Shown: one piece after another, positions 41,888-57,253 of the stretch
Numbering within the stretch: the stretch's first letter is position 1
How the letters are laid out: each line of letters begins with the position of its first letter
Program-made: the position numbers and the translations under genes
The notes under the pieces: model-generated
Databases searched by the model: none
Told to the model about the DNA's origin: nothing
What the model saw: only the letters and a program-made list of their open reading frames with translations
From: Gammaproteobacteria bacterium
GTDB taxonomy: Bacteria; Pseudomonadota; Gammaproteobacteria; SURF-13
Direction: 5' to 3'
Assembly: GCA_016195665.1 (NCBI GenBank)
Contig: JACPZD010000001.1
Location: forward strand, 282,848 to 346,847
DNA: 64,000 nucleotides

Positions 41888-41905
41888 AGGGCGCGGCTAA
41901 TAGTT

Positions 41906-41966
41906 TGTTGAAAAAGGCCATCCTGGGCCTTTTTCAACACGCAAGCTGTTTTTCAACAGCCTGCTA
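41906..41966. repeat. Repeat family B hairpins (copy 2)
   Basis: GTTGAAAAAGGCC-ATCCT-GGGCCTTTTTCAAC then CACGCAAGCTGTTTTTCAACAGCCTGCTA; same units as 28979-29127. Confidence 0.5.
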
Positions 41967-42377
41967 ATCGTTTTTCTCATCGTCGTCCTTGGATTTATCA
42001 CTATCCAGTTTACCCGCACGCTTGGAGCCGTACATGTTGACCATGTAGTATACAAATGCAAATCCCGCCGCAATGTACACCAGGGCCGCGGCGAAGCCCC
42101 AGTCGAACCACGGGCGCGGATGTCCGGGACGGTCTCCCCAAAACGGAAAACTCAAACCCACGGCAATCAGCGTAACGACAACGACCACCGCGACAAACCA
42201 ATACGGGAGATTGCGCTGCGACTCGGGGATTTTCTCGACCAGCTCCCAGTCTTCCAGGCCACGCTTCATGCGGCGTTCCTCGTCCGAGGCATAACCGTAA
42301 TGATCCGGCTTCTCGACGCCCCAATCGGGGGTCCCCGGTTCACTCCCGTTTTTTTCCTCATCCTGCTGCATAGTCAT
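41964..42377 (-). CDS. Hypothetical two-TM membrane protein with acidic termini, downstream of ccoG
   Basis: Two hydrophobic helices (WFVAVVVVVTLIAVGL; AAALVYIAAGFAFVYYMV). Overlaps the ccoG stop by 4 bp. Confidence 0.45.
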   Translation of the reverse strand: MTMQQDEEKNGSEPGTPDWGVEKPDHYGYASDEERRMKRGLEDWELVEKIPESQRNLPYWFVAVVVVVTLIAVGLSFPFWGDRPGHPRPWFDWGFAAALVYIAAGFAFVYYMVNMYGSKRAGKLDSDKSKDDDEKND

Positions 42378-43723: not shown

Positions 43724-43755
43724 AGCAATGCTATTTTAACATACGCCTTAACTGC

Positions 43756-43870
43756 CAGTGAGGCGTAAGGCGTGAGGAGTGAGGTGTATAAAACCGCTTC
43801 CCTCACGCCTCACTCCTCACCCCTCACTTGTTGTAACGCCTCACTCCTCACCGGTTTTCACCCTCACTCC
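43756..43870. repeat. GGTGAGG/CCTCACC heptamer inverted tandem repeat (family C), copy 2
   Basis: GTGAGGCGTAAGGCGTGAGGAGTGAGGTG ... CCTCACGCCTCACTCCTCACCCCTCAC ... CCTCACTCCTCACC. Overlaps the 3' end of the MFS/spermidine-synthase gene. Confidence 0.6.
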
Positions 43871-46591
43871 CCTGTCGAGCGGGCTGACGGCGGTCAGTTG
43901 CGAGCGGTAGCGCTCCGCCTCGGCCGCGTTACCCGCCTCTCGTTCGAGCCGCCACAAGGCGCGCAGCGTCTCGACATGATCGGGACGCAGCTTGAGTATC
44001 GCCTGCAAGGCGGCACGCCTGTCTCTGCCCTTGGCAAGGACCTGCGGCAGCGAGGCATACATCGCATCGGCCAGCGCAAAGGCAATCCAGCGGTCACGGG
44101 GATTCGCCTCATAAGCAAGACGCAGCAACCGCGCACCCTCGTCACTGCCGCGTAGCGTCGCAAGCCAGCCGCGCGTGGCCAACTCATTTCCCGCGTAGCT
44201 GCGCTCAAACTCGGCCATATCTGACATCGCGATATGCATCTCACTCGCGGCCTGTTCCAGTGTCGGGCGTTGTCGCAGCAATTCCTCTATAATGTTTACA
44301 AGATCCATTTCTCCGCTGTAACGGGCACGGGGCAGGCTATACTCAATGCGTGGAGCCCATTCGTCTTGCACCGGGCCGGTTTCGGCGTTTATTCGCCCCC
44401 AGTAACGGCCCAGCCAGGTCCACGCGCCTTCACCGCCGGTCACCCGCGACTGTGTTTCGGTATTCATACGGTTGAGGTTGGCGAGCATGGCCGGCGCACC
44501 ACCTATCGCCTCTGTTGCGCCAACCAGCGCCAGGCGAAATCCGTCCATGAAGATCACGGCGTCCGGATACACGCGCGCGAAGCTGCGCAGCACCACGGCA
44601 AGCGACCCGGCGTCGAACTGATTGAGCGCGATCCATTGTACAAACAGACCGCCCTCATTGAGGCGTGCCTTGGCACGGGCGAACTGCTGTACCGAGAGCA
44701 GCGTGCTGTGACCGACCAGATCGGGGTGAAACAAGTCGCCGACGATGACATCGTAATGCCCGCTGCCGGCGCGCAAAAAACGCCGCGCATCATCGCGCAC
44801 GATGCGGGTAGCGGCAGCGACGCCTTGATTGAGAGGCGCAAACCAGGGCATGGCCTCTATCACCCCCTGAGACACTTCCACGGCGGTGCGTTGCAGATCC
44901 GGAAACGGCAGGGAACCGGACGCCGAGATACCCGTGCCCAAACCGAGAAACAGCACGCTGCGCGGCGCGGGGTGCAGCAACAGCGGCAGCCGCGCCTGGT
45001 TTTGCTGCACGATCACAGCGGCCTGATCGGTCGCCGCATCCATGCGCTGCATGTCGGTCAGCAAGACGCGCTGACCATCGGCGCGTTCCACGACCTGAGT
45101 GATGGAGAGCGCATCCTCGTGACGATACACGTCATGACTCCCCGCCTGCGCCTTGGGCAACAGTTTTGCAATCTCCGGTAACTCCCGCACCGGCCAACCC
45201 AATACTGCGAGTGTGAAAAATCCCGTTGCTACTACAACAGCTTTTAGAGCAGAGCCTCTGACCCACACCAGGCCGCACACCAGCAGCACCGATGCAGCGA
45301 TCAGCAGCGTGCCGGGCGCGCCGAACGCCGGGATCAACACCCCGCCTGCGAGCAGCGCGCCCAGCGCCCCGCCCAGTGCGTTGACGCCATACAACCACGC
45401 GCCGCTTTGTACTACCCACGAATCTGCGACCGAAGGGCGCTCTGACTCCCCTTCTCCCGCTGGGAGAAGGTGGCCCGAAGGGCCGGATGAGGGAGAGACC
45501 GCACAGTTCATGGACATCGTTCGCGACATCGAGGTCGTGCGGTCTCGTCCGGCGCGCGCGCTGATGAGCGGCAGCCACGCGCCCAACGCAAGGGTTACCG
45601 GCAGGGTGAGTGCGGTCAACGCGAGCCCTTGCAGGGTAAGCGCCTGGAGTAGTGAGTCAAACCGACCCTGCTCCGCCCAAGCCGAGATGATGGGCACTCC
45701 CCATAAACTGGTGACTGAAAACAGCACGGCGATGACGGGTAGGGAACTCAACCAGAACCTGTCCCTCATATACCTTGCGAGCAGGCTGCCCAAACCTATG
45801 CCGAGCAAAAATATAGCGAGGATCAGCGCCATAACATACTCGGTGCGCAGCAGAATCATGCCGAACAAGCGTATCCAAGCGATTTCCAGCATCAGAGCCG
45901 CAGCGCCCACACCTGAATAGGCCAACAAGGTTAATAAATCGGGGCGGGCGTCTGTTGTCACACCTTGCGGCGAGCTACGCGCCGGTGCGACGGTGGAGAG
46001 TAGCCCTGCTCCCAGCGCAATCAGCAGTCCTATCGACGCAACGACGTCTATCGCCTGAGCCCAGCCCCAAGCCGGTAACAGCCAAAGCGGTAACAAGGCG
46101 CCCGCGACACCGCCGCAGGTGTTCGCCCCGTAGATCTCGGCGAGTGTCAGCGGAGTGGGCGCCAAGACCTTGAGCATCAGCGGGAAGGTAACGCCCATCG
46201 CCAGAGCAGGAAGCGCCAGCACCAGCAGCGTCACCGCACCCTGCAGCAGGTACCAGCCGTTCAGGTCTAGCTGCACGGCGAGACTGCCGGCTGTGCCGTC
46301 TAGCAGACGCAGTAATTGCGGCAAGGCGAGCGCGAACAGCGCGACGCCCCCTTCCAGCACGGCAACCACGCGGAGTGGATTGCGCAACCTCAAGGATAAC
46401 CGCTCGCCCAGCACGCTCCCAAAACCGAGCCCCAGCATGAACGCCGCCACCGTAACGACGACGCCGAAGATGCTCACCCCGAATTGCACCGTCAACATGC
46501 GCGCCCACAACACTTCGTAAGCGATGCCTGTCATGCCGGAGAAGGCGTAAAGGATCAGTAAGGCCCAAGGCCAGACGCGAGTAGCACGCAT
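43841..46591 (-). CDS. Fused MFS-like membrane domain / spermidine synthase-like (PABS) domain protein with C-terminal TPR repeats
   Basis: About 12 N-terminal TM helices, a central spermidine-synthase-like Rossmann region (VLFLGLGTGISAS...VIVGDLFHPD), and a C-terminal TPR-like helical repeat region. 916 aa. Confidence 0.7.
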   Translation of the reverse strand: MRATRVWPWALLILYAFSGMTGIAYEVLWARMLTVQFGVSIFGVVVTVAAFMLGLGFGSVLGERLSLRLRNPLRVVAVLEGGVALFALALPQLLRLLDGTAGSLAVQLDLNGWYLLQGAVTLLVLALPALAMGVTFPLMLKVLAPTPLTLAEIYGANTCGGVAGALLPLWLLPAWGWAQAIDVVASIGLLIALGAGLLSTVAPARSSPQGVTTDARPDLLTLLAYSGVGAAALMLEIAWIRLFGMILLRTEYVMALILAIFLLGIGLGSLLARYMRDRFWLSSLPVIAVLFSVTSLWGVPIISAWAEQGRFDSLLQALTLQGLALTALTLPVTLALGAWLPLISARAGRDRTTSMSRTMSMNCAVSPSSGPSGHLLPAGEGESERPSVADSWVVQSGAWLYGVNALGGALGALLAGGVLIPAFGAPGTLLIAASVLLVCGLVWVRGSALKAVVVATGFFTLAVLGWPVRELPEIAKLLPKAQAGSHDVYRHEDALSITQVVERADGQRVLLTDMQRMDAATDQAAVIVQQNQARLPLLLHPAPRSVLFLGLGTGISASGSLPFPDLQRTAVEVSQGVIEAMPWFAPLNQGVAAATRIVRDDARRFLRAGSGHYDVIVGDLFHPDLVGHSTLLSVQQFARAKARLNEGGLFVQWIALNQFDAGSLAVVLRSFARVYPDAVIFMDGFRLALVGATEAIGGAPAMLANLNRMNTETQSRVTGGEGAWTWLGRYWGRINAETGPVQDEWAPRIEYSLPRARYSGEMDLVNIIEELLRQRPTLEQAASEMHIAMSDMAEFERSYAGNELATRGWLATLRGSDEGARLLRLAYEANPRDRWIAFALADAMYASLPQVLAKGRDRRAALQAILKLRPDHVETLRALWRLEREAGNAAEAERYRSQLTAVSPLDRGVRVKTGEE

Positions 46592-46686
46592 TTATATTTG
46601 GAGACCGAGTTGGCCAGGAAGGGTGTGAATTTGTCTCACCTACTTACGACCGAATTCATTCGGCCTGCAGCTCTCGCTCACAAAAC

Positions 46687-47049
46687 TCAAAACGGATAAA
46701 ACCACACAATCGCCACCACCGCATGCACGATCGCCAGCGTCACGCTGATACCCGCCATCACCATGTGAGGGATAAAAACCTGCTTTCCATACAACGCCAT
46801 GGCGATGCCCAGACCCGCCGTCGTCAATATACTGATAAGCAGCGCCAGCCCCATCAAGAACAGGATCTGGTGTTTCTTTCTCGTCTCCGCCTGCTGCTTT
46901 TCTAGCTGGCCTAGTTTGGCCCGATCCTCTTGCTGCACAAACTCCTGAATTACTGCCTCATTACTTCGATCTGCGGCCAATGCCCGGTCGAGCGGGGATA
47001 GCGGACATAACAACGCTGCAATCAACGGCAACGACCAAGTGCTCCTCAT
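46687..47049 (-). CDS. Hypothetical secreted/membrane protein (120 aa)
   Basis: N-terminal signal peptide, coiled segment, two C-terminal TM helices. Confidence 0.4.
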   Translation of the reverse strand: MRSTWSLPLIAALLCPLSPLDRALAADRSNEAVIQEFVQQEDRAKLGQLEKQQAETRKKHQILFLMGLALLISILTTAGLGIAMALYGKQVFIPHMVMAGISVTLAIVHAVVAIVWFYPF

Positions 47050-47058
47050 GCGCTCAGA

Positions 47059-47271
47059 TCACTCGTCACGGTCGGACTCTGCACTCGACGCGCGCTTCGC
47101 GTTGCGCCAATACAACCATGCAGCAAGGCCGATGGGCGCGAGCACGCCGGGAACCAAAAACAAGAAGATGTACCATAAGGTATCAATCGTAACATGCAGA
47201 TAGCGGTAACTATCGAGGGCATAGGCCGCTCCCGGCGTGAGCAGCCCGCAGTATAAGGCAAACTTTTTCAT
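47059..47271 (-). CDS. Hypothetical small membrane protein (70 aa)
   Basis: Signal-like N-terminus plus TM helix LWYIFLFLVPGVLAPIGLAAWLYW. Confidence 0.35.
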   Translation of the reverse strand: MKKFALYCGLLTPGAAYALDSYRYLHVTIDTLWYIFLFLVPGVLAPIGLAAWLYWRNAKRASSAESDRDE

Positions 47272-47280
47272 GGATCCTGT

Positions 47281-48333
47281 CTAGGGCGCGCTTTGCACGC
47301 AACGAAAACCATAAAAATCCGAGGCGTAATTCGGCAGTGAGTAGTTGCGGTGGTAGGCCGCCGTAGAAAACGGATCACTCTTCCACGACCCGCCGCGCAT
47401 AACCTTGTAGCGCTGATCCGTCACTACCAGGTCTACTACCTTAAGGCTGCGGTCTTCCGCTGAGGTCGCCTTACCGCGCTTGGCCTTGAACAAATCCTCC
47501 GGCGCGGTGCTCCCGGGATACGGCACAAAATCATCCGCCGTCCACTCACTGATATTGCCGGCGAGATCCATCACCCCAAACGGGCTCGCGCCCCGCGGAT
47601 ATGCAGTGACCGGCGTGGTCGCCCCCACGTTGTAGTAAGTATTAAGCCGTGTCCCGTCCATTTCGTTACCCCAGGGCCAGCGCCGTCCGTCCGCCCCGCG
47701 CGCGGCCTTTTCCCACTCCGCTTCGGTCGGCAGGCGCTTGCCCGCCCACTGCGCGTATTTTTCGGCATCATGCCACGACACCATCGTCACCGGGTGCAAC
47801 TCCTTACCCTTGGGGATCATCCCCCCCACCCAGTTTTCCGGTGGGCGATGCCCGGTCGCGACTACAAAGCGGGCATATTGCGCATTCGTCACCGGGTACT
47901 TGTCAATGCGATAGGCAGGCAGCGTCACGCTGTGTTGCGGCCGGTTTTGCTCGTCGGCGCGCTCGTTGTCGGTACCCATGATGAACGGCCCTGCCGGAAT
48001 GAGCAGCGTCGTATCCACTTCAGCCCATTGCGCCGGAGTAAGCAATTGCTCGACTTGTTCAGGCGTGTACAGCCCGACCGCCACTTTCGCCTCACCGGTG
48101 CGCCGCATGGCGTCCTCACCCGCCGCGCGAATGCGCGTGGCTTCTTGCTTCAAGTCGTACGTCGCCTTGCCTCGCATCTCGGCCATGCGGTTGGCGCCGA
48201 GCTGGATTACATGAATACTCCCGCCTATCATGGCCAGCGCCACGCAGGTCACTAAGGTGGCTATCAGATAACGCTTGCGCTTCGCGCGCTCCGCCGCTGT
48301 CAGCGCGGGTCTGCCGGGTAATGTCGTACTCAT
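47281..48333 (-). CDS. Formylglycine-generating-enzyme (FGE/SUMF1) domain protein, membrane anchored (NirV-like)
   Basis: N-terminal TM helix and an FGE-sulfatase domain ending RGGSWKSDPFSTAAYHRNYSLPNYASDFYGFRCV. Confidence 0.8.
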   Translation of the reverse strand: MSTTLPGRPALTAAERAKRKRYLIATLVTCVALAMIGGSIHVIQLGANRMAEMRGKATYDLKQEATRIRAAGEDAMRRTGEAKVAVGLYTPEQVEQLLTPAQWAEVDTTLLIPAGPFIMGTDNERADEQNRPQHSVTLPAYRIDKYPVTNAQYARFVVATGHRPPENWVGGMIPKGKELHPVTMVSWHDAEKYAQWAGKRLPTEAEWEKAARGADGRRWPWGNEMDGTRLNTYYNVGATTPVTAYPRGASPFGVMDLAGNISEWTADDFVPYPGSTAPEDLFKAKRGKATSAEDRSLKVVDLVVTDQRYKVMRGGSWKSDPFSTAAYHRNYSLPNYASDFYGFRCVQSAP

Positions 48334-48346
48334 AACGCCAACCCAA

Positions 48347-48835
48347 TCAAGGCTGGTAGGGCTTGCCGGTCAGCTTTTCGTACTCGGCCTTACGGGTTTC
48401 CACCAGATACCAGTCCTTCACCTTCAGGCTCGCCATATAAGCGGCGAGCGTACGCCTGTCCTGTTCAGGCAGGTGCGCGTAGGAGGGCATACGGTATTGT
48501 TTTTTGAGGCGAGAGGGCAAGATCGTCTGCGGGTCGGGCGCGGAGAAATAGACGTAAAACCACGCTTCATCGCGCAGCGAGCCTATCCCATCCAACGCCG
48601 GCGCGGGCACCGACTCGAACATGTTGCGCACCGTCCAGAGCGTATGGCAATTCTTGCAGCTCAGGCTGCGGTATAAATCTGAGCCCTTGCGTGCAAGTTC
48701 GGGAGTAGCGGTACTGTAAAACGGGATGCCGGGGTCCTGCTGCGCGGGCAGACCTAATTGCCACAAACCCCTGCCAACCGCATACAGTACCAGCGCGGCG
48801 ATGATCCCGAGCACCCATTTCTCACCTCCGCGCAT
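48347..48835 (-). CDS. Membrane-anchored mono-heme c-type cytochrome
   Basis: N-terminal TM helix and one CKNCH heme-binding motif. Confidence 0.7.
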   Translation of the reverse strand: MRGGEKWVLGIIAALVLYAVGRGLWQLGLPAQQDPGIPFYSTATPELARKGSDLYRSLSCKNCHTLWTVRNMFESVPAPALDGIGSLRDEAWFYVYFSAPDPQTILPSRLKKQYRMPSYAHLPEQDRRTLAAYMASLKVKDWYLVETRKAEYEKLTGKPYQP

Positions 48836-48851
48836 CGCCTGCCAGCGTCCT

Positions 48852-49100
48852 CTAGTGATGCCCGCTTAACTCCTCGCGCCGCTTAATCTGCTGCGCGATC
48901 ACTTCCCGGCTCTTGGCGTATTCCTCCGGGCTCATCCGCTCCCTGTCATCCTCCGTGAACATCACGTATTTGATGTCCTCATCGAATTGCTCATTGCGCA
49001 TCGCCCAGCGTATCCCGAACACCACAGCGATCAGAATCAGCCCGCCGACCACCAGCCACAAGTAAATCGTCCAGCCATCAACTAAAAAATCCGTATTCAT
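48852..49100 (-). CDS. CcoQ-like small subunit candidate (single TM)
   Basis: 82 aa; N-terminal DGWTIYLWLVVGGLILIAVVFGIRW TM helix and a charged tail resemble FixQ/CcoQ. Confidence 0.4.
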   Translation of the reverse strand: MNTDFLVDGWTIYLWLVVGGLILIAVVFGIRWAMRNEQFDEDIKYVMFTEDDRERMSPEEYAKSREVIAQQIKRREELSGHH

Positions 49101-49180
49101 AGTTCCATCCTCCTATCGTGAAGCCATCCCTGGCGTTACCTCAAGCTCTTCTATAAGCACCGGCCGCTTCGCGGCTCACC

Positions 49181-49477
49181 CTAAAACAGATAACCACCCA
49201 ACAACTGCAACGAACCCATGATCACCGCGACCACAATACCCAGAAATATCCAGGCAAACAGCCACTTCTCACCGGTCTTCAACCCTTTGACATTTTTCCC
49301 CGCCATAAATCCAATCACAATGGTGGAAAAAAATATGATCGCGAGCAGCATGAAGAAAAACACCCCGATGCTGAATTCCTGACTGTAAACACTATCCACC
49401 CCCCTGTCCATGGCAAGCGGATTTTGTGTCTGTACAATCATGGTCCGATTTACTGATAAATCCATAAGTAAGGCCAC
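49181..49477 (-). CDS. Hypothetical small membrane protein (98 aa, 3 TM)
   Basis: Three hydrophobic helices; sits between the CcoQ-like and CcoP-like genes. Confidence 0.4.
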   Translation of the reverse strand: MALLMDLSVNRTMIVQTQNPLAMDRGVDSVYSQEFSIGVFFFMLLAIIFFSTIVIGFMAGKNVKGLKTGEKWLFAWIFLGIVVAVIMGSLQLLGGYLF

Positions 49478-49694
49478 ACTTACCGATACGTCCCCCCCTA
49501 TGTAGGGGGCGGGACAGGGTGGGGGTAGATAAAAACGCGGTGTTTACTCAGAAGTCACAAAGACGACCTGTCGTCTTTGTGACTTCTGAGTAACGACATA
49601 GAGCTGATAACACGCATCTCAGTGAATCTAAACCCCTAAAAAGACAATGCCGCTACTGAGAGCGGCATTGTTGTTCTTGGTTTGCGGCTGCGTG

Positions 49695-49820
49695 TTATTT
49701 TTTCTTCTTATACAGGTTAGGTGCGTAACGGTCTACGATAAAGCTGTAGAGCACTGGCACCAGCAAGGCCACTAACGTTACTCCGGCCAGAACCAGCGGC
49801 GGATTGTCCAGATCTATCAT
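49695..49820 (-). CDS. Hypothetical 41-aa single-TM microprotein
   Basis: MIDLDNPPLVLAGVTLVALLVPVLYSFIVDRYAPNLYKKKK. ATGA overlap with the upstream CcoP-like gene. Confidence 0.3.
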   Translation of the reverse strand: MIDLDNPPLVLAGVTLVALLVPVLYSFIVDRYAPNLYKKKK

Positions 49821-50503
49821 GCTACTCTCCTCTTTTGACCATGCACGCTCAACTCGGCAATCTCGGCGTCGCTCAACATGCGCTCGTTACCATGACGCGG
49901 TTGCACCGTATAGGGTGGCAGCCGCTTTACTACTATCATTACCGCCAGGCAGAAATAGATCACGTAAAAGATGTCGATAGTATATCCCTTATCCCACCAG
50001 GGCTGTTGACGCACAATGCTGCCGTCGGGACGGACATTCCCTTCAAAGTTGGCAAGGACGAGCCTATCGCCCAGAACGGTATAGTCTTCCAGAATGGCGT
50101 TTTTCGCCTGCAGGTCCTGGATGAGCGGCTTCAATACACGCAGGTCATCCATTTCTACGGGGTGTTGTATCAGTTGAGTCTTGTGCTTTGATTTACTACC
50201 CACCTCTTTGACAAGATAGTCCATGCGGGCCTGATCATTCGGCAGGGCCTGCACTTCGGGGCTATCCATCGCAGCGATATACTCCTGATAGATCGCTGCG
50301 GTAGGGCGCTGGCCCCACAAGGGAAAGGTAATAAGGTATGCGGATATGATGGTCAGCACCAGCAGATACACCACCGGCTGAGGCAGACGGTTGTTGTTCT
50401 CGGTGATGCCGCCCAGGCTTTCGGACTCCCATATCTCCATGGCGGTCTTGTTGCTTTCATCATCCGTGAGGGTACGCAGCGGGTTGTCAAATCTCCAGGC
50501 CAT
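49817..50503 (-). CDS. CcoP-like membrane anchor lacking c-type heme domains
   Basis: N-terminus (ESLGGITENNNRLPQPVVYLLVLTIISAYLITFPLW) resembles the CcoP/FixP N-terminal TM region (D-G-I-x-E-x-x-N-P-L-P). No CxxCH motif occurs anywhere in the 228 aa. Confidence 0.5.
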   Translation of the reverse strand: MAWRFDNPLRTLTDDESNKTAMEIWESESLGGITENNNRLPQPVVYLLVLTIISAYLITFPLWGQRPTAAIYQEYIAAMDSPEVQALPNDQARMDYLVKEVGSKSKHKTQLIQHPVEMDDLRVLKPLIQDLQAKNAILEDYTVLGDRLVLANFEGNVRPDGSIVRQQPWWDKGYTIDIFYVIYFCLAVMIVVKRLPPYTVQPRHGNERMLSDAEIAELSVHGQKRRVA

Positions 50504-50514
50504 GACACATCCTC

Positions 50515-51465
50515 CTACTTTAAGTTCAAGACAAAGTCTATCAAGTAACGAATCTCGCTGTTGCTCGCATAGGCGGGCACCTCGGGCGGCGTCACGCGCT
50601 CGCCACGGCGATATTCCAGAAACTCCCTGCGCCAGCCCGCATAGTTAATCTTGTTGCCGTTGGCGTCGGTCTCGCCCCACAGGTAATCAAAGCGCGGCAT
50701 GATGGAGTGCGGCTGCACCAGGCGTGGATTGAAGAAGTGCATCATCATCCACTCCTTGGAGGAGTTGCGCGAACCGACATGCAGCAGGTCGGGCGCCTTG
50801 CGGTCGGAGCCAAATGCGGTGGGTGACTCACCGTTGAAGTCGCCCAGATAAGGCGGTGCGCCGAAGTATTGGAAGTCCTGAGTCTGCTCGGGCAGTAAAG
50901 TGTGGCACCACCAGCAGCCCTCCCGCACGAAGATGACCTTGCCCGAACCGGCATAGTGGGCGTTGGCGTCACCGGCCGCGGTGAGCACCGCATCAGGCGT
51001 CCAGCCGTGGGTGACGCTGGCGTTCTCTATATAGGGGTAAGATTTACCCTCGTAGTCGCCGTTCTTAACCAGGAACACGGCGCCCTGCGTCTCGCTTGCC
51101 TCATGGATTTTACCCTGTTCAACGCTCAACTCCGCACTGCCGGCACCGAGCACCTTCGGATGCTTGATGCCGCTGGGGAAGGGTGCGCCGGGACGGAATA
51201 CGTAAGCGTACACCGGGTCCATGTCCGCGCCCGAGGCCGGGTCCTTATTCAACAAAACCTTGGTGGGTGCGGCGTGACCCCTGAGGCGCGGATCGCTGAA
51301 GCTAAAGCCGCTGTTGGCCCCGTAGGTCAATTGCTTGTCGAGCGCGAGCGCCGTAGAGCCCACCGAGAAGATGTTGAAGCTCGGCATCACCAGCGTGATG
51401 AACATGGACAAGCTGAGTGCTGCACCGAACATCACGGCGCCGATTCTATACTCTCTAAAGGCCAC
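50515..51465 (-). CDS. ccoO: cbb3-type oxidase mono-heme subunit II (CcoO/FixO-like), N-terminally extended
   Basis: GTG start with AGGGAG RBS. CWWCH heme site and the CcoO signature ...PDLLHVGSRNSSKEWMMMHFFNPRLVQPHSIMPRFDYL. 316 aa versus the usual 200-240. Confidence 0.75.
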   Translation of the reverse strand: MAFREYRIGAVMFGAALSLSMFITLVMPSFNIFSVGSTALALDKQLTYGANSGFSFSDPRLRGHAAPTKVLLNKDPASGADMDPVYAYVFRPGAPFPSGIKHPKVLGAGSAELSVEQGKIHEASETQGAVFLVKNGDYEGKSYPYIENASVTHGWTPDAVLTAAGDANAHYAGSGKVIFVREGCWWCHTLLPEQTQDFQYFGAPPYLGDFNGESPTAFGSDRKAPDLLHVGSRNSSKEWMMMHFFNPRLVQPHSIMPRFDYLWGETDANGNKINYAGWRREFLEYRRGERVTPPEVPAYASNSEIRYLIDFVLNLK

Positions 51466-51608
51466 GTCTATACTCCCTTAAGCAAATTAATTCATCTCCG
51501 CAGCTTGCTGCGGGCGCAAAGCGATGGGGTTTCCACAGGGAAGAGGCGCAGATCTTCCCTTTGGTCGCCCGCGCGTTTTTCAGACCGCGCGGAGCGAAAT
51601 CCAATTGG

Positions 51609-53018
51609 CTATCGTTCGTAGGCCAGCTCATGCACCATGCGGCCGGCCGGCACTATGGTGCCCTCACGCGCCGTCATATACATGTTATACAGCCACACGC
51701 AGTTACCGAGGAATACCAAGGTACCGCCAAACCAGCGCGCGATCATGTACGGGTGCTCGGCGACCACGATATCAATGTACGGCACCTCGTAAATCTTGCC
51801 CGCGCCCTGAATCAGGCCCGCGATGGTCATTGAGATCCAGTAGATCGAAAAGCCGATCAAAAGCATCCAGAAGTGGAAGTTGGCGAGGGCCAGGGAATAG
51901 AGCTTACGCTTCATGATCATCTGCAGGCCGTAGTACACGGCGGCCACCTCAATGAAGGTGGAGAAGCCGAGCAGTGCGAGGTGCGCGTGCGCCACGATCC
52001 AGCCGGTGCCGTGGATGTACCAGTTGATCGAGCGTGTCTGCTGGAAGCCGCCCTGCATGTTGAGCGGAATGGCGAGCAGCACGCCGGTCACCGTGAAGCG
52101 CACCTCGATGTTCTCCACGAACATGTTCCACTTGCCCTGCATGGTAAGCAGGATATTGGATACGAAGGCGATCGCAGGCACCAGGATCAGCACGCCCTCC
52201 ACCGAGGCGAATGACTTCAGCCACTCGGGCAACGGCGCGGACATCAGGTGATGCGCGGCGGGCGTGGAGTAGAAGATCACGATGGACCAGAAGTGCAAGT
52301 GGCCGATACGATGCGAGTACAGCGGGTTGCCGGTGATTTTGGGGATGGTGTAGTAGGCAATGGCCGCGGCCACGGGGGTGATCCACAAACCGAGAATGTT
52401 GTGTGCATTCCACCAGGTGAGGTAGGCCTCGGTCAGGCCGGTGAGGTGGAAGTACTCCGGCAGGTTGCCTACCAGCAACACGATCATGAGCATGAAGATT
52501 GAACCGGCGAAGAACCAGTTGGTGGTGTATATGCCCTGGGTACGGCGTTTGGCGATGGTCATCCAGACATTGAGCGACACGGGGATCAGCACGCCAAACA
52601 GCAGGATGAGATCTATGGGATAGATAAAGTCGGAGTATTCACGCCCGGAGGTCATTCCCATCCACATGGTGATCAGGCCCACAGCCAGGCCGATATTCCA
52701 GTTCATGCAGCTCCACAGCGCGAGCTTTTCCGACCACAACTTGGTATTGCCAAGCGCCGGGGTGATGTACATCATCGCGGCGGCGAAGGCCATCGAGATC
52801 CAGCCGAAGATCACCGCCATTACGTGCACCTGGCGCATCTTGCCGAAGGCGAAGTACTCATAGCCGGTTACCCAGTCGGGGAAGGCCAGCTTGGCGGCAT
52901 TGAAAGAGCCCAAACCCGTGCCTATGATAAACCAGACGATGGCCGAAAAAGAAAAGAACAGCGTCGCGGTGCCCGGCGGGATGTCTTCGCTCTTGGAAAA
53001 CAGATATTTGGTCAACAT
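51609..53018 (-). CDS. ccoN: C-family heme-copper oxidase catalytic subunit I (CcoN/FixN)
   Basis: 12 TM helices. TWWNAHNILG (helix VI), HHLMS (CuB His pair), HAHLALLG (helix X heme ligands). 469 aa. Confidence 0.85.
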   Translation of the reverse strand: MLTKYLFSKSEDIPPGTATLFFSFSAIVWFIIGTGLGSFNAAKLAFPDWVTGYEYFAFGKMRQVHVMAVIFGWISMAFAAAMMYITPALGNTKLWSEKLALWSCMNWNIGLAVGLITMWMGMTSGREYSDFIYPIDLILLFGVLIPVSLNVWMTIAKRRTQGIYTTNWFFAGSIFMLMIVLLVGNLPEYFHLTGLTEAYLTWWNAHNILGLWITPVAAAIAYYTIPKITGNPLYSHRIGHLHFWSIVIFYSTPAAHHLMSAPLPEWLKSFASVEGVLILVPAIAFVSNILLTMQGKWNMFVENIEVRFTVTGVLLAIPLNMQGGFQQTRSINWYIHGTGWIVAHAHLALLGFSTFIEVAAVYYGLQMIMKRKLYSLALANFHFWMLLIGFSIYWISMTIAGLIQGAGKIYEVPYIDIVVAEHPYMIARWFGGTLVFLGNCVWLYNMYMTAREGTIVPAGRMVHELAYER

Positions 53019-53114
53019 GCTAATACCTCATCAAACTCGAAATCTGTAGCGTGCGCCGCGCGCGCGCCCCGTAAAATAATTTTAGTTATATTTAGGCCTA
53101 ATTAAGACCGGCGC

Positions 53115-53273
53115 TTACTTTTTTGCCGGCATCGCGCAGCACGGCTTGATCAGCCCGCGGTTACCGACCTTGCCGCACACCTTGCAGGGGATCATCAGAT
53201 ACCATGCTAGCCACATGCTGGAGAAGGCGGCGACCATGCTAAAAACTGCGGCGATTATTGCTAAAAGACCCAT
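53115..53273 (-). CDS. Hypothetical 52-aa TM microprotein with CxxC...CC motif
   Basis: MGLLAIIAAVFSMVAAFSSMWLAWYLMIPCKVCGKVGNRGLIKPCCAMPAKK; GGAGC RBS. Immediately upstream of ccoN. Confidence 0.35.
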   Translation of the reverse strand: MGLLAIIAAVFSMVAAFSSMWLAWYLMIPCKVCGKVGNRGLIKPCCAMPAKK

Positions 53274-53339
53274 TTGCTAGCTCCGTGCGCTGTTAGTTTC
53301 GACTGCATAAATTTAGGGGTACCTTGCTGCAAGACAGCC

Positions 53340-53633
53340 TTAGTGATGACCGCCGCCCTGGCTCACTTTGGACATCTTATCATGACCATATATGGCGGAC
53401 AATAAGATCCATATAAAGGCGAAACCGAACACCAACATGGTCCAGGTCATAAAGCCGTTGAAGTAACCGAACGGATTGTAAGAGTTCCAGCCGCCCCAGT
53501 CGCCAAAGGCGCCACGGCCCAGATTGGCCATGAGATAAATACCGAACACGCTGCCGTTACCCATCCCCACCACCATGCCGACCACCAGGCTAAGTATCAG
53601 GGATTTTCTCACCATGCTGACCGACTTCGCCAT
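53340..53633 (-). CDS. Hypothetical small membrane protein (97 aa, Gly-rich, 3 TM, C-terminal His tail)
   Basis: Hydrophobic helices and a GGGHH C-terminus; no family recognised. Confidence 0.45.
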   Translation of the reverse strand: MAKSVSMVRKSLILSLVVGMVVGMGNGSVFGIYLMANLGRGAFGDWGGWNSYNPFGYFNGFMTWTMLVFGFAFIWILLSAIYGHDKMSKVSQGGGHH

Positions 53634-53745
53634 ATCTCTCTCCGCTCTTGGACTTGAATTAAATGTTCACAAAGCGCCCAAACCAGGGGCTTGCCGTTAA
53701 TTTGTATAATTTACATCAGGTCGCGTTATAATTTCAACACCTGAT

Positions 53746-53946
53746 ATGAAAGAAATTGTCGTTTATTTAATCGCGGCCATCGCCGGGCTGACCATACTGG
53801 GGTATTCGGTGCATATGCTGATCGGCGGGCTGGTCAGCAGGGCCACGGAATACACTGTGATTGCGCTCGCCGTTTTAATTGGGGTAGCTGTGCTTGGCTT
53901 TCTCGCCTGGGATGTGGTGAAGAGGCGGGTGAGAAGTGAGGAGTGA
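53746..53946 (+). CDS. Hypothetical 66-aa two-TM microprotein
   Basis: MKEIVVYLIAAIAGLTILGYSV... two helices. The 3' end runs into the heptamer repeat. Confidence 0.35.
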   Translation: MKEIVVYLIAAIAGLTILGYSVHMLIGGLVSRATEYTVIALAVLIGVAVLGFLAWDVVKRRVRSEE

Positions 53947-54046
53947 GGGGTGAGGGGTGAGGGGTGAGGGGTGATAGCTTTTTACTCCTTACTCCTCACT
54001 CCTTACGCCTAACTCCTCACCTTTTTCTAACTCCTCGCCCCTCACA
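53928..54046. repeat. GGTGAGG/CCTCACC heptamer inverted tandem repeat (family C), copy 3
   Basis: (GTGAGGG)x4-5 ... TTTTTACTCCTTACTCCTCACTCCTTACGCCTAACTCCTCACC...CCTCAC, between convergent genes. Confidence 0.6.
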
Positions 54047-54047
54047 G

Positions 54048-54503
54048 CTACTTGTAAACCGTCAAGGCCTCTCGCACCTCTTTGAATGTCGCGGCATCTT
54101 GAAACTGTCCGCGGTGGAAGATGAATTGCCTCGGTTGGCCCAAGACGTCCTTGCCGGAAAGCCCGATGGATTTCCCTTGGGTGTCGCTGTAATAACGGAC
54201 GTCTTTGACCAGTTGCACTCTCTCGCCGTTACGCAACTCCAGGCGCACCTGCTCGCGGCTGATTTCGATCGCCACCGGGGAGGTGGGCAGCCACATCAGG
54301 CGGGTTTTAAGAATACGGTTGGCGCCCGCGATGAAGAAAAACGAGGCCATAAAAAAAAGGATATAGGCCACGGACGGGTTCTCGCCATACCCCAGCTTGA
54401 GACCGAGCAGCCCGAGCACGACGACGGTGGGCACATATAACAGCAAATCCCACAACACTCCCTGCCGGTCCTGCCGCAGGACGTAGCGGGTGACGCCGCT
54501 CAT
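54048..54503 (-). CDS. Membrane protein with bacterial PH-like (YdbS/bPH_2-like) cytoplasmic domain
   Basis: Two N-terminal TM helices followed by a roughly 80-aa beta-rich domain. Confidence 0.45.
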   Translation of the reverse strand: MSGVTRYVLRQDRQGVLWDLLLYVPTVVVLGLLGLKLGYGENPSVAYILFFMASFFFIAGANRILKTRLMWLPTSPVAIEISREQVRLELRNGERVQLVKDVRYYSDTQGKSIGLSGKDVLGQPRQFIFHRGQFQDAATFKEVREALTVYK

Positions 54504-55006
54504 CGCTTAGCGGTTGCCGCGGGGAGCACGCGGCTGAGCTGCGCCTCGAGTTCGCCATACATGACCCGTCCGGCCTGTACATAACGCACCGTCTGTTTTT
54601 GATCTATCACGTAGGTCCAGGGGTCGCCCATTATGCCGAAGGCCTTGAAGGCCTGCGGGTTTTGGTACTGGTCTATGTGCATAAACAGCACCCGCGGCTC
54701 ATACTTGCTCATCATGGCCTTGAGCATCTGGAGCTGCTGATCACAGGGCGTGCAGTGACCGGGGGTGGCGAAGGCGAGCACGATGGGCTTGCCGGTCTTG
54801 AGCGCCTGATCGAGCGAGTATTGATACATGCGCGCGTCGGGATAGCGGTAGGTGGTGATCTTGCTAAAGTCGCCGCCCACGTCGGCCAGGGTCTTGGTGG
54901 CGATCGGCGGGGCCTGCATGCCGACGCCCACCCTCGGCCCAAAGTCGCAGGCCGTCAAAAGAACTACGAGGCAGAGCGTGAAGGCTCCGTAGCGCGCGCG
55001 CATCAT
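54500..55006 (-). CDS. TlpA-like thiol:disulfide oxidoreductase (thioredoxin fold, CxxC), probable lipoprotein
   Basis: Signal/lipobox LVVLLTAC. Thioredoxin-fold active site LAFATPGHCTPC. Confidence 0.7.
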   Translation of the reverse strand: MMRARYGAFTLCLVVLLTACDFGPRVGVGMQAPPIATKTLADVGGDFSKITTYRYPDARMYQYSLDQALKTGKPIVLAFATPGHCTPCDQQLQMLKAMMSKYEPRVLFMHIDQYQNPQAFKAFGIMGDPWTYVIDQKQTVRYVQAGRVMYGELEAQLSRVLPAATAKR

Positions 55007-55530
55007 GGCTTTGCGCTCTGCGGCTCGCTCCAGCCGCGCGCGGTGCGGAACAGGTTGTAGGCCCAGATGAGGTTGGAGAGCAGCACCAAACTGCCGAACA
55101 TCCCCACCGAGATCATAAACGGACGCACGATTTTATTGACCTCGTCAATGTCCATGGTTTCGCTGGCCAGACCGCCCAAACTCCCCGCCATGACAAAGGA
55201 CAGGACCATGCCGAGCAGGCCGAAGTTGTGGACCCAAAAATGAATGTTGACCAGGCGCAGGCTATAGATGTTGCGCCGGACGATGCGCGGCACGATGTAA
55301 TACACCGCCGCGAATATCGCCATCTCGACCCAGCCCAGCAGGTTCAGGTGGCCGTGGCCGAGCATGATGAGATGGGCGTGCGGCCTGTGGTTGATGAAGT
55401 CGCGCAGTTTGGGGAGCATGCCGACCACTACGCCCCAGGAGAAGCCGATGATGCTGTAAATCACGCAGGCCGCAATAAACCATAAAATGTAACGGCGGTA
55501 CTGTGTGTCCTGGCCGAAATTCTCATTCAC
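55003..55530 (-). CDS. Stand-alone heme-copper oxidase subunit I C-terminal-domain-like membrane protein (paralog 2)
   Basis: 175 aa. HAHLIMLGHGHLNLLGW...IYSLRLVNIHFWV...LIWAYNLFRTARGW is homologous to paralog 1 and to the CcoN C-terminus. Overlaps neighbours by 4 bp on each side. Confidence 0.6.
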   Translation of the reverse strand: MNENFGQDTQYRRYILWFIAACVIYSIIGFSWGVVVGMLPKLRDFINHRPHAHLIMLGHGHLNLLGWVEMAIFAAVYYIVPRIVRRNIYSLRLVNIHFWVHNFGLLGMVLSFVMAGSLGGLASETMDIDEVNKIVRPFMISVGMFGSLVLLSNLIWAYNLFRTARGWSEPQSAKP

Positions 55531-56141
55531 GGGGAGGGCGCCTTTTCTGTCGCGTCTCCCTGTTGCCCGGGGGGTTTGGTGCGGATGTCCTGGTATTTAT
55601 CCTTCCAGCCTTCAGGGGCCCACATCTTGACCATGCTGTCTATGAATCCTGAGCTTTCCGGCGGCGGCTCGCGCGCCATAGACGAACCTTGTTCCGCCTT
55701 GAGTTCGGAGAGAAACATGGCGATGTCGTGGATGTCTGCGGAGGGAAGGGCAGTAGTGTAGCCCGCTTCTCTGCCGGGGGCGTGATCCATGGTCGTCGTT
55801 CCATAAGTCAACTCCGGCCGCCTCAGGAAATTCTCTATCCACTCCGCGCTGCGGCGCGAACCGATACCGTCCAGTACGAGGCCGTTGTTGGTGCCGTTGC
55901 GCATCGCGCGGTGGCAGGCGGTGCAATTGGCTTCGCGGAATAATTTTGAGCCGCGCAGGCCTTCCGCGGTGGAATCAAAGGAGCTGCGCGAGGTGAACAT
56001 CGGCTCCTTCATGTGGCTGCGCACGGTCTCGAGCACGATGTAACCGATCACCGCCAACACCAGAAACGCACCGAATACGGCAAACAGCACGCGTTCGCCG
56101 GGTTTGAGGGATTGTTTAGGCTTCGTCGTAGGCAGTGTCAC
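55527..56141 (-). CDS. Membrane-anchored mono-heme c-type cytochrome
   Basis: TM helix VLFAVFGAFLVLAVIGYIV and one CTACH motif. Confidence 0.7.
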   Translation of the reverse strand: MTLPTTKPKQSLKPGERVLFAVFGAFLVLAVIGYIVLETVRSHMKEPMFTSRSSFDSTAEGLRGSKLFREANCTACHRAMRNGTNNGLVLDGIGSRRSAEWIENFLRRPELTYGTTTMDHAPGREAGYTTALPSADIHDIAMFLSELKAEQGSSMAREPPPESSGFIDSMVKMWAPEGWKDKYQDIRTKPPGQQGDATEKAPSP

Positions 56142-56165
56142 GGTTAACCTTGCACATCGGCAGGT

Positions 56166-56203
56166 AGAAAAACAAAAGGGCGGGGATGTTTCCCCCGCCC
56201 TTA
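56166..56203 (-). terminator. Intrinsic terminator after the diheme cytochrome c gene
   Basis: Hairpin AAGGGCGGGG-ATGTTT-CCCCGCCCTT followed on the minus strand by TTTTGTTTTT. Confidence 0.55.
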
Positions 56204-56266
56204 TGGGACTTGCGTCCCTACAACAAGTTCAAAAACTCAACTCTAAGGCGAACGCGCTTTCAGCGG

Positions 56267-57253
56267 CTATTCGTGCGCGGCGCCGGCGGTATTCGGCGGT
56301 ATTTGGTGAGGCTGACGCGAATTGCCCATGGAGATAGGCGGCGCGCTGGTCAGGTAGGCGGCGACATTGTAAATGTCTTCATCCTTGAGCTTGCTCGCCA
56401 CGGCGCGCATCTGCGCCAGCGGGTCGTTGGCGCGGCTGCCATCCTTCCATTTCTTCAACTGATTTACCAGATAGACGTAACGCTGTCCGCCGATGACGGG
56501 GTAGATCGGCAGGGCACCGCGCCCGTTGAACTGGTGGCAGCTGCTGCAGGCCGGTACGCCTTGGGCCGGAATACCATAGAGCACGATGCCCTTTCCGAGA
56601 TGACGCTCACCGACCGGTACGGTGCCGGCCGTCTTGATCTCGTCCAGATTAGAGGCCGAGGCGAGCGCATCGTGATGCACGCTGGACTCATAGGCGGCGA
56701 TGTCGGCCTTGTCCTGATCGGAGAGGGCCTTGGCGACACCGTTCATGACACCCATGGTGGTGTCGGTCCGGAGGTCTGCGGCGAACTCATAGAGCTGCTT
56801 TCTGATGTAAGTAAAGCCTTGGCCGGCCAACCGGGGGGTACCCATATTGTCATCGCCCAGACCTTGCTCACCGTGGCAGGACATGCAGGGCGGGGCCTCG
56901 CCTTTCCCTTCGTTGAAGATCTTTTTCCCGGCCTCGAAATTACCGACCAGCCTGAGCGCCTCGCCCGGCATGGGCATAGGAGGCGGAGTGGCGGGGGCTA
57001 CGACCTCCGGTGGGGTGGGGGTTGCCATGGCCTCCGGATTTTCCGCGGGGACGGGGGGGGCTACTACCGCCGGAGCGGGCGCAATTTCACCCGCCGGGGC
57101 CGAACCGGCGGATTCCGGGGCTGCCGGTGCTTGCTCAACGGCCGGGGCAGACGTGACGCCCGGATCTTCTGACCAAGCTTGATTTGCCGCGACCAAGGCC
57201 AAGGCCGCAAGCGATGCCTTAATTAACCGACGCATAATGAATCCTTCCTCCAT
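56267..57253 (-). CDS. Diheme cytochrome c4-like protein with Pro/Ala-rich linker
   Basis: Signal peptide; two heme sites CMSCH and CSSCH; low-complexity PAPA-rich N-terminal linker. Confidence 0.8.
   Translation of the reverse strand: MEEGFIMRRLIKASLAALALVAANQAWSEDPGVTSAPAVEQAPAAPESAGSAPAGEIAPAPAVVAPPVPAENPEAMATPTPPEVVAPATPPPMPMPGEALRLVGNFEAGKKIFNEGKGEAPPCMSCHGEQGLGDDNMGTPRLAGQGFTYIRKQLYEFAADLRTDTTMGVMNGVAKALSDQDKADIAAYESSVHHDALASASNLDEIKTAGTVPVGERHLGKGIVLYGIPAQGVPACSSCHQFNGRGALPIYPVIGGQRYVYLVNQLKKWKDGSRANDPLAQMRAVASKLKDEDIYNVAAYLTSAPPISMGNSRQPHQIPPNTAGAAHE

Follow-up and report, generated by a model that had tools for sequence, protein, structure and literature searches.

A divergent cbb3-type oxygen reductase locus with a haem-less CcoP-like protein, most probably of the "distal" form known from lithotrophic Proteobacteria

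Introduction

What kind of enzyme is encoded by an oxidase locus that has ccoN and ccoO, but in which the gene in the ccoP position lacks a haem-binding motif, and by which route would electrons enter such an enzyme? This question is raised by a stretch of 64,000 nucleotides (here called the window, and numbered from its first letter) of contig JACPZD010000001.1, from the metagenome-assembled genome (MAG; GCA_016195665.1) of a gammaproteobacterium of the SURF-13 lineage. The original prediction, made from the letters alone, had placed an atypical cbb3-type oxidase locus at positions 47281–57253. The right end of this range was correct; its start was not, as the conserved cluster reaches down to 41501. 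The cluster (41501–57253) comprises about 22 genes, all on the minus strand except g06, which is antisense to the others; features given below without a strand lie on the minus strand. In the direction of transcription the genes are g01, g02, g03, g04, g05, g06 (antisense), g07, g08, ccoN, ccoO, g11, g11b, g12, g13, g14, g15, g16, g17, g18, g19, g20, and g21.

Families were assigned from scans with Pfam and NCBIfam. The cluster was compared with 80 loci, one genome per species, in which CcoN is 77–99% identical to that of the window, and it is to these loci that the counts out of 80 refer. We consider it likely, judging from sequence comparison, that the cluster encodes a complete, functional, divergent C-family (cbb3-type) O2 reductase together with its electron donors and assembly factors, of a type found in chemolithoautotrophs and most probably the form called "distal" [see Ducluzeau et al. 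2008].

The Catalytic Subunit

The gene for the catalytic subunit I, ccoN, lies at 51609–53018, and its product matches Pfam COX1 with an E value of 4e-76. Five chains in the Protein Data Bank (PDB) were matched at E <= 1e-5, all of them CcoN chains of cbb3 oxidases (the best being 3mk7_A, E 2.6e-63), and no chain of a nitric-oxide reductase (NOR) was matched at this threshold. CcoN is not a ccoN equivalog: it scored 234.9 bits, the cutoff of NCBIfam TIGR00780 being 583, and thus belongs to a divergent lineage rather than to the typical ccoN. This is in keeping with the original suggestion of a variant C-family oxidase, as the best PDB matches are all cbb3 and the scores against the NCBIfam equivalogs are far under their cutoffs.

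The residues of the active site were numbered as in Pseudomonas stutzeri, by reading them off the alignment with 3mk7_A, and their invariance was determined over the window protein and 120 homologues (121 sequences). The equivalents of the ligands of haem b (H60 and H347), of haem b3 (H345) and of CuB (H207, H257, and H258) are invariant, as are the equivalents of the cross-link Tyr251 of helix VII (Y250 in the window) and of Glu122 at the Ca site. By what is established for the superfamily, the cross-link Tyr is lacking in NORs. Thus, the set of six His ligands and the cross-link Tyr, which is the pattern of an O2 reductase, argues for a C-family O2 reductase and not for a NOR. Judged by these residues, CcoN is a member of the C-family with an intact haem b and haem b3–CuB site.

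The original prediction had left open whether O2 or NO is reduced. If the enzyme were a NOR, or another non-O2 reductase of C-family descent, its divergence from canonical cbb3 oxidases and its scores under the equivalog cutoffs would be accounted for, as would two clade-fixed changes near the active site, namely Gln at the position of Glu323 and Ala at that of Tyr317; several of the hosts also inhabit oxic–anoxic interfaces. A literature search on the roles of Glu323 and Tyr317 found nothing relevant. This explanation is opposed by the invariance of the cross-link Tyr and of the three CuB His, by a PDB search that gave only cbb3 chains at E <= 1e-5, and by the obligate microaerophilic iron oxidisers that are reported to depend on this cbb3 oxidase and to express it highly. 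The NOR reading was rejected on the active-site residues, and we hold it to be very improbable.

Subunit II and Its Inserted Domain

The ccoO gene (50515–51465) encodes a monoheme subunit II of 316 amino acids with one CWWCH motif. The FixO domain was found in residues 174–265 (E 2.7e-17; 63.4 bits, cutoff 29.6), and the five PDB matches of the protein are all cbb3 subunits. Both ccoN and ccoO are therefore present, as had been claimed. Like CcoN, CcoO is not an equivalog of its canonical counterpart (63.9 bits; cutoff of TIGR00781, 200.65). The CWWCH motif and the Met ligand (M256, in "SIMPRF") are invariant in the homologues.

The original prediction had noticed that CcoO is longer than usual, and had placed the extra residues at the N-terminus. 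The extra length is real, but its position is internal: in the alignment, residue 174 is paired with residue 55 of the CcoO of P. stutzeri (3mk7_B), and a transmembrane (TM) anchor is present at the N-terminus, therefore about 119 extra residues have been inserted between the anchor and the haem domain. An origin of this length in a wrongly called start codon, which had been named as a possible flaw, was ruled out: the homologues are 305–320 amino acids long in 120 of the 120 listed, 117 of these 120 align over their full length, the GTG start and a GGAG-type ribosome-binding site are kept in the nearest relative, and the N-terminal TM anchor is conserved.

The structure of CcoO was modelled with AlphaFold2 from an alignment of 32 sequences. 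Residues ~70–170 of CcoO were modelled with predicted local distance difference test (pLDDT) values of 76–96, as four long β-strands and short helices, and the insert is thus confidently predicted to be a folded β-domain. A Foldseek search of the PDB with this model gave no significant match.

The Haem-Less Protein in the ccoP Position

The gene in the ccoP position, g11 (49817–50503), is found in 79/80 loci and encodes a protein of 228 amino acids. Its only family match is to FixP_N (E 2.4e-5), and the CxxCH motif is absent both from g11 and from all 36 aligned homologues; thus, the original description of a CcoP-like N-terminal segment without CxxCH was accurate. FixP_N is matched weakly (E <= 0.1) by 36 of the 36 aligned members of the family, which has 1588 homologues at E <= 1e-3. 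Of the listed homologues, 35 are named members, and every one of these bears the annotation "hypothetical protein".

The invariant g11 motif G31-G32-x-x-E35-x-N37-N38-x-L40-P41 aligns with "G46-I-E-E49-Y-D-N-P-L-P55" of CcoP (3mk7_C), and the Glu at the position of P. stutzeri CcoP Glu49 is kept as the invariant E35. The predicted layout of the protein is a cytoplasmic FixP_N motif, a first TM segment, a periplasmic domain of about 110 residues, a second TM segment and a cytoplasmic tail; from the distribution of charges, the N-terminus and the KR-rich C-terminus are cytoplasmic and residues ~64–172 periplasmic. The periplasmic domain was modelled at pLDDT ~85–92. Foldseek of the g11 model against the PDB gave no significant match, and phmmer with g11 alone gave no match.

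The absence of a canonical CcoP was examined by a six-frame regular-expression scan for a FixP_N-like motif and CxxCH within one open reading frame (ORF); neither the window nor any of the 80 loci yielded one. CxxCH occurs in just four ORFs of the full 64 kb: those of CcoO, g14, g02, and g01. A hidden canonical CcoP is ruled out by these two results, and a canonical diheme ccoP elsewhere in the operon, the other flaw that had been named, was found neither in the window nor in the 80 loci.

The start of g11b (49695–49820), which encodes a single-TM microprotein of 41 amino acids, overlaps the stop of g11. This microprotein, with the sequence "MIDLDNPP...P.IYSFFVD.YDK", is found directly 3′ of g11 in all of the ~45 loci listed, and is a candidate small subunit of the CcoQ/CcoM kind. 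Judging from the numbering of accessions, NCBI's annotation of the source MAG appears to lack both g11b and g08.

An intrinsic terminator (a hairpin and a T run) is present at 49644–49671, closing ccoN-ccoO-g11-g11b. A hairpin with a T run (<= -10 kcal/mol) is found between g11 and g12 in 45/71 loci, mostly ~170–240 nt past g11, i.e., just 3′ of g11b, and the sequences differ between loci. That a terminator has been conserved at this place despite differing sequence is evidence that the structural transcript ends with g11b. Start and stop codons overlap within the cluster, at g11/g11b and likewise at g02/g03. Read in this way, ccoN-ccoO-g11-g11b is one structural operon closed by a conserved terminator. 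A scan for sigma-70 promoters gave 9 sites where 7.8 are expected by chance, which is no excess. The spacer between ccoN and ccoO (51466–51608) is 143 nt long, compared with 27 nt in the closest relative (L005), and contains an insertion of ~115 nt with two GC-rich hairpins/inverted repeats that is missing from that relative; it may be a small REP/MITE-like element or an element that stabilises the mRNA.

Three further genes of the structural part or its surroundings bear on subunit composition. The 97-aa membrane protein encoded by g07 (53340–53633) is present in 80/80 loci, directly 5′ of g08/ccoN, and is a candidate small subunit. The same can be said of the TM microprotein encoded by g08 (53115–53273), with the core "FSSMW.AWYL" in at least 40/80 loci and a CxxC...CC tail. 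The original prediction had remarked on this microprotein 5′ of ccoN; the gene itself was upheld, and the Cys tail turned out to be confined to the lineage of the window (L001–L011 and L067), the homologue elsewhere being a TM peptide of ~30–40 residues that ends soon after "FSSMWF.WYL". The third gene, g20 (41964–42377), encodes a second haem-less FixP_N-like protein with two TM segments (hhalign against the g11 family: 92.9% probability, E 3.8e-7). It is a paralogue of the N-terminus of g11, with the same Glu and LP motif, and lies directly 3′ of the CcoG-like g19. Where the loci extend that far, strong matches to g20 lie directly 3′ of g19 in ~43 of the 60 loci with any match; the remaining matches are weak cross-matches to g11.

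It could be argued that the oxidase is a minimal CcoNO enzyme of two subunits, and that g11, g11b, g07, g08, and g20 are factors for assembly or stability, similar to CcoH or CcoQ. Such a role would suit the lack of a recognisable fold or cofactor motif in the periplasmic domain of g11; CcoQ, a product of the canonical operon that is missing from mature cbb3 structures, is seen as an assembly factor, and the proteome of Mariprofundus ferrooxydans PV-1 yielded only CcoN and CcoO. Yet an assembly factor would have no evident need for the CcoP-specific cytoplasmic motif and invariant Glu of g11; the translation of g11 is coupled to that of g11b, both being within the ccoNO transcription unit; and shotgun proteomics readily overlooks small hydrophobic proteins. 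We therefore regard a two-subunit enzyme as rather unlikely, and prefer the reading in which g11 and its small companions belong to the oxidase.

Cytochromes c and Electron Entry

As the original prediction had claimed, cytochromes c are encoded as separate genes: one diheme protein (56267–57253) and two monoheme proteins (55527–56141 and 48347–48835). The first, g01, is a c4-type diheme cytochrome c with a signal/anchor sequence, two CxxCH motifs and two Pfam Cytochrom_C domains, and is found in 56/80 loci. Its translation has a hydrophobic N-terminus, then a Pro/Ala-rich linker of ~70 residues, then the diheme domain. This layout resembles the anchor–linker–haem-domain design of the tethered cytochrome cy of Rhodobacter capsulatus; g01 is diheme, whereas cytochrome cy is monoheme. 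In the PDB, g01 matched cytochrome c4 of Pseudomonas aeruginosa (6q2u/8smr, E 4.7e-23) and cytochrome c-552 of Acidithiobacillus ferrooxidans (1h1o, E 3.6e-19), and the cytochrome c4 match is also part of entries for the bc1–cbb3 supercomplex. Within the supercomplex of P. aeruginosa, cbb3 is supplied with electrons by c4 and c5. By these matches, g01 is a candidate electron donor of the Cyc1 kind. A hairpin resembling an intrinsic terminator, with a stem of 11 bp (8 GC pairs) followed by a T run, lies 3′ of g01 at 56176–56202.

Both monoheme proteins are membrane-anchored. The first, g02 (55527–56141), has one CTACH motif (Cytochrom_C, E 2.4e-9) and is found in 72/80 loci, and its stop overlaps the start of g03. 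The second, g14 (48347–48835), has one CKNCH motif, matches Pfam Cytochrom_C/Cytochrome_CBB3 and is found in 74/80 loci; it is a candidate functional stand-in for the haem domain of CcoP. Pairwise comparison of g02 and g14 with CcoO gave no significant similarity, and a PDB search with g14 gave no informative relative.

As there are no CcoP haems, electrons would have to reach the haem of CcoO directly from g01, g02 and/or g14. From this gene content we infer an alternative electron-entry route.

Conservation and Synteny

CcoN has hundreds of close relatives. The hosts of the 80 loci include Ca. Nitrotoga, Gallionellaceae, Sideroxydans, Ferrovum/Ferrovaceae, Chromatiaceae/Chromatiales, Ectothiorhodospiraceae, Thiotrichaceae, Ca. 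Tenderia, and Zetaproteobacteria/Mariprofundaceae. A tblastn search with 19 proteins of the window, to which g11b, g20 and g21 were added afterwards, recovered each of the 19 genes in 52–80 of the loci, with median identities of 45–81%. Order and orientation are kept across the loci, that of the antisense g06 included, and synteny continues through g20 and g21 wherever the loci reach far enough. This arrangement is far beyond chance and is syntenic over three proteobacterial classes. Thus, the microproteins flagged in the original prediction, being conserved across proteobacterial classes, are genes and not noise.

These comparisons also bear on whether a canonical cbb3 locus has been distorted by errors of gene calling, frameshifts or MAG assembly. 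The window does come from a MAG; however, the same gene lengths, order and motifs occur in up to 80 independent genomes, including Nitrotoga isolates, and no CcoP-type ORF exists in any frame. The likelihood of such an artefact is negligible.

The g01–g06 block is absent, or located elsewhere, in a few loci of Ferrovum and Nitrosomonadales; thus, the cluster is modular. It has three modules: a donor module (g01; g02–g05), the structural operon (g07-g08-ccoN-ccoO-g11-g11b) and a downstream module (g12–g21). Between Zeta-, Beta- and Gammaproteobacteria, CcoN is 77–83% identical and the neighbouring genes 45–65%, which is unusually high for such distant classes and suggests that the whole cluster may have spread horizontally among lithotrophs.

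Some loci contain additional genes. In Nitrotoga (L013, 14464–14934), and in several of the listed loci with a similar gap, there is an extra membrane protein of 156 amino acids between g14 and g15. In the same Nitrotoga locus, an insert of ~2.5 kb between g05 and g07 (L013, 6920–9395) comprises g06, a TM protein of 128 amino acids and a polytopic membrane protein of 577 amino acids. Apart from g06, the proteins of both extras are absent from the window.

Short Paralogues of CcoN

A "mini-CcoN" of 175 amino acids with four TM segments, a paralogue of helices ~IX–XII of CcoN, is encoded by g03 (55003–55530; Pfam COX1 positions 303–428, E 9e-18). It is 37% identical to the window CcoN over residues 331–451 (BLASTP), keeps three His that align with H336, H344, and H346 of CcoN, and bears the NCBI annotation "cbb3-type cytochrome c oxidase subunit I". 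A search of the full library gave 613 relatives of mini-CcoN (E <= 1e-3), of which many stand alone as proteins of 130–190 amino acids. Full-length subunit I proteins match it in three stretches, which is consistent with the pseudo-threefold repeat of the fold.

A second mini-CcoN (~175 amino acids, four TM segments) is encoded outside the conserved cluster, on the plus strand at 40352–40873, paired with a protein of the PF20603 "Bact_hydrolase" family at 40870–41388. Both mini-CcoN copies keep His that align with ligands of haem b/b3.

Accessory Genes

The original prediction had also counted at least six small TM proteins. Besides g07, g08, and g11b, the small TM proteins of the cluster are g06, a 66-aa protein with two TM segments (53746–53946, plus strand; 65/80 loci, always antisense to the cluster), g12, a 98-aa protein with two TM segments (49181–49477; 71/80 loci), g13, g16, which has 70 amino acids with a signal peptide and one TM segment (47059–47271; 67/80 loci), and g17, a 120-aa membrane protein with only weak matches to DUF4079/HsmA (46687–47049; 65/80 loci). 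Of these, g13 (48852–49100; 82 amino acids) is a maturation microprotein similar to CcoS/FixS (FixS E 3e-4; 20.9 bits, cutoff 23.1), found in 71/80 loci with a median identity of 64%.

Upstream of g06 are two more genes, each found in 63/80 loci. One, g04 (54500–55006; median identity 64%), encodes a lipoprotein with the thioredoxin fold and a CTPC motif (Pfam AhpC-TSA/Thioredoxin), probably a periplasmic thiol:disulfide oxidoreductase. The other, g05 (54048–54503), encodes a membrane protein of 151 amino acids with no family match.

An FGE-domain protein had been claimed and was confirmed as g15 (47281–48333; PF03781, E 9e-59; 69/80 loci), a TM-anchored periplasmic protein with the FGE-sulfatase fold. 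Its domain has a single Cys (GFRCV, as read from the translation) and scored under every NCBIfam equivalog cutoff; it is not a true FGE, because it holds one Cys and not the catalytic pair. The members of the cluster are labelled by NCBI as "formylglycine-generating enzyme family" or "SUMF1/EgtB/PvdO family nonheme iron enzyme". A fused MFS/spermidine-synthase/TPR protein had been described as well. This is g18 (43841–46591; 61/80 loci), which lies outside the range originally given, and is a polytopic membrane protein of 916 amino acids with a spermidine-synthase-like domain and a helical-repeat C-terminus. The MFS/spermidine-synthase part was borne out (NF037959 MFS_SpdSyn, 44 bits, just passing the cutoff of 40; Spermine_synth, E 4e-5), and TPR was not detected by Pfam at E <= 0.01.

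A polyferredoxin membrane protein similar to CcoG/FixG is encoded by g19 (42374–43723; 52/80 loci), with matches to TIGR02745 (E 2e-31; 109 bits, cutoff 317), Fer4_5, and Fer4_18. At the end of the cluster, g21 (41501–41887) encodes a lipoprotein of 128 amino acids without a Pfam match, found in 16 loci that reach that far. Neither CcoH nor CcoI (the Cu-ATPase) turned up in the scan, which took in the cluster genes and the larger ORFs of the window. The original statement that the locus departs from the ccoNOQP-ccoGHIS layout holds, yet the cluster has genes for a CcoG-like and for a CcoS-like protein; thus, the assembly set is not wholly absent. From their co-conservation with the oxidase we infer roles of the accessory genes in its biogenesis.

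The genes that flank the cluster (those for FtsY, BioF, cyclic di-GMP enzymes, RecQ and γ-glutamyltranspeptidase) have housekeeping or signalling functions, so the cluster is an ordinary chromosomal locus. The NCBI accessions of its proteins in the window are MBI3343577-93. GC skew is strongly negative over 46–50 kb (-0.12 to -0.14); beyond 50 kb it is close to zero or positive, although the strand of the genes does not change.

A Model of the Oxidase and Its Meaning

In the model that we prefer, the core of the enzyme would consist of CcoN and CcoO. A TM segment of g11 would replace the CcoP helix, g11 placing its cytoplasmic Glu where the single proton-uptake channel opens, and g07, g08, and g11b would be small subunits comparable to CcoQ/CcoM. 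Electrons would enter at the haem c of CcoO, from the linker-bearing g01 and/or the membrane-anchored g14 and g02, and from there would pass to haem b and on to b3–CuB. The β-domain of CcoO probably fills the space of the lost haem domains of CcoP, or forms a surface on which donors dock. The CcoS-like g13, the FGE-fold g15, g18, the CcoG-like g19, g20 and, upstream, g04 would be dedicated factors for the insertion of Cu and haem.

Several points weigh against this model. The FixP_N score of g11 (24.4 bits) is just under the Pfam cutoff of 24.9, and when the PDB was searched with a g11-family profile, no CcoP was retrieved, only noise. Glu49 of CcoP reportedly sits where the single proton-uptake channel opens to the cytoplasm; two papers on cbb3 structures do not mention the residue. 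The Gln and Ala that take the places of Glu323 and Tyr317 in CcoN mean that protons may be handled otherwise than in the canonical model. The haem domain of CcoO has low confidence in the AlphaFold2 model, as is expected because the cofactor is absent from the prediction. The membership of g11, g11b, g07, and g08 in the complex is deduced from the genes, and the proteomics of PV-1 showed CcoN and CcoO only. Lastly, the assignment to the distal form was made by elimination and by orthology to the loci of iron oxidisers so called.

A bolder reading, which we put forward tentatively and consider somewhat less probable than not, is that of a distinct subfamily of C-family oxidases for lithotrophs that pass high-potential electrons (from Fe(II), nitrite, reduced sulfur or cathodes) straight to O2, with an architecture of its own, an altered proton path and new biogenesis factors. 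The architecture may comprise CcoN, a CcoO with a donor-docking β-domain, a haem-less remnant of CcoP kept for the mouth of the proton channel, and at least three micro-subunits. The biogenesis factors may include the periplasmic FGE-fold protein, the MFS/SpdSyn-like protein and the 4-TM "single-repeat" paralogue of CcoN, which perhaps binds haem.

In neutrophilic iron oxidisers, this oxidase is the main terminal oxidase and is very highly expressed, and the same cluster is found in the nitrite-oxidising Nitrotoga, in sulfur oxidisers and in the cathode-oxidising Ca. Tenderia. Models of electron transport in these organisms still show the textbook CcoNOP. If the enzyme indeed has no CcoP haems, periplasmic carriers (Cyc1/c4-type and others) must dock on CcoO, and the redox span and the yield of proton pumping in these energy-starved hosts may depart from the Pseudomonas/Rhodobacter paradigm. 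The cluster thereby provides a delimited set of proteins that are candidates for subunits or assembly factors, and a model of composition and electron entry that can be tested.

Comparison with Known Systems

With the cytochrome c-dependent NOR (NorBC), the enzyme shares a catalytic subunit with 12 TM segments, a TM-anchored monoheme c subunit and the lack of a diheme third subunit; it differs in that CuB-type ligands and the cross-link Tyr are kept.

Among the closest known systems are the canonical CcoNO(Q)P oxidases of P. stutzeri (3MK7/5DJQ), P. aeruginosa (8SMR) and R. capsulatus (6XKW). The fold of CcoN, its metal ligands, the helix-VII Tyr and the Ca-site Glu are the same; CcoO is a TM-anchored monoheme protein whose haem has His and Met as ligands; the genes are arranged as N-O-(P-like); and a c4-type cytochrome is the likely donor. 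In contrast to these oxidases, the third subunit of the window has no haem domains, CcoO has a β-domain of ~119 residues, CcoN has Gln/Ala at the positions of Glu323/Tyr317, the small subunits are others (g07, g08, and g11b) and the scores against the NCBIfam equivalogs are less than half of the cutoffs. With the ccoGHIS/fixGHIS set, the cluster has in common the CcoG-like g19 and the CcoS-like g13, both under the cutoffs of their families; in place of the remainder it has the FGE-fold protein, the MFS/SpdSyn-like protein, the thioredoxin-like lipoprotein and the second FixP_N-like protein.

The nearest known systems are those of iron oxidisers. Papers on these organisms describe Zetaproteobacteria and Gallionellaceae with two forms of cbb3, which belong to two subtrees in Ducluzeau et al. 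(2008), the "proximal" and the "distal" one, and are said to be unlike in the subunits that compose them. The classical form in Gallionellaceae is ccoNOQP. As the Gallionellaceae carry either this or the distal form, the form found in the window is by elimination the distal one, and by this comparison the locus is most probably the distal cbb3 of Ducluzeau et al. In Sideroxydans lithotrophicus ES-1, the distal ccoNO is at the 98th–99th percentile of expression, the distal form reaching its highest level in cells grown on thiosulfate, and a homologue of cyc1 lies within the cbb3 cluster. The genome paper on Ferrovum JA12 reported subunits I and II only, and proposed co-localised c-type cytochromes as the substitute for subunit III. 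In M. ferrooxydans PV-1 and Ferriphaselus, three cbb3 genes were annotated, with a pattern of locus tags that matches N-(gap)-O-third gene; in PV-1 the third gene was labelled simply ccoP ("ccoNOP", SPV1_10291/10301/10306), and CcoN and CcoO were the only components of the oxidase detected in the proteome. The literature searched contained no description of a haem-less FixP_N protein with a conserved Glu, of the CcoO insert, or of g11b and g08, nor of the synteny of ~22 genes with the FGE-like and MFS/SpdSyn-like genes.

The distal cbb3 of the literature has no identifiable subunit III, and c-type cytochromes are found beside the oxidase, as in the window. The CcoN of the window is 77–83% identical to its homologues in Mariprofundus, Sideroxydans, Gallionellaceae, and Ferrovum, and the neighbours are the same. 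Compared with the distal loci of ES-1 (ccoNO), of PV-1, and of Ferrovum JA12 (FERRO_02570/02560), nothing essential differs, and the window would be another member. The clade itself is already recognised and widely annotated as cbb3, and its make-up is poorly characterised; what is added here is a sharper list of its parts.

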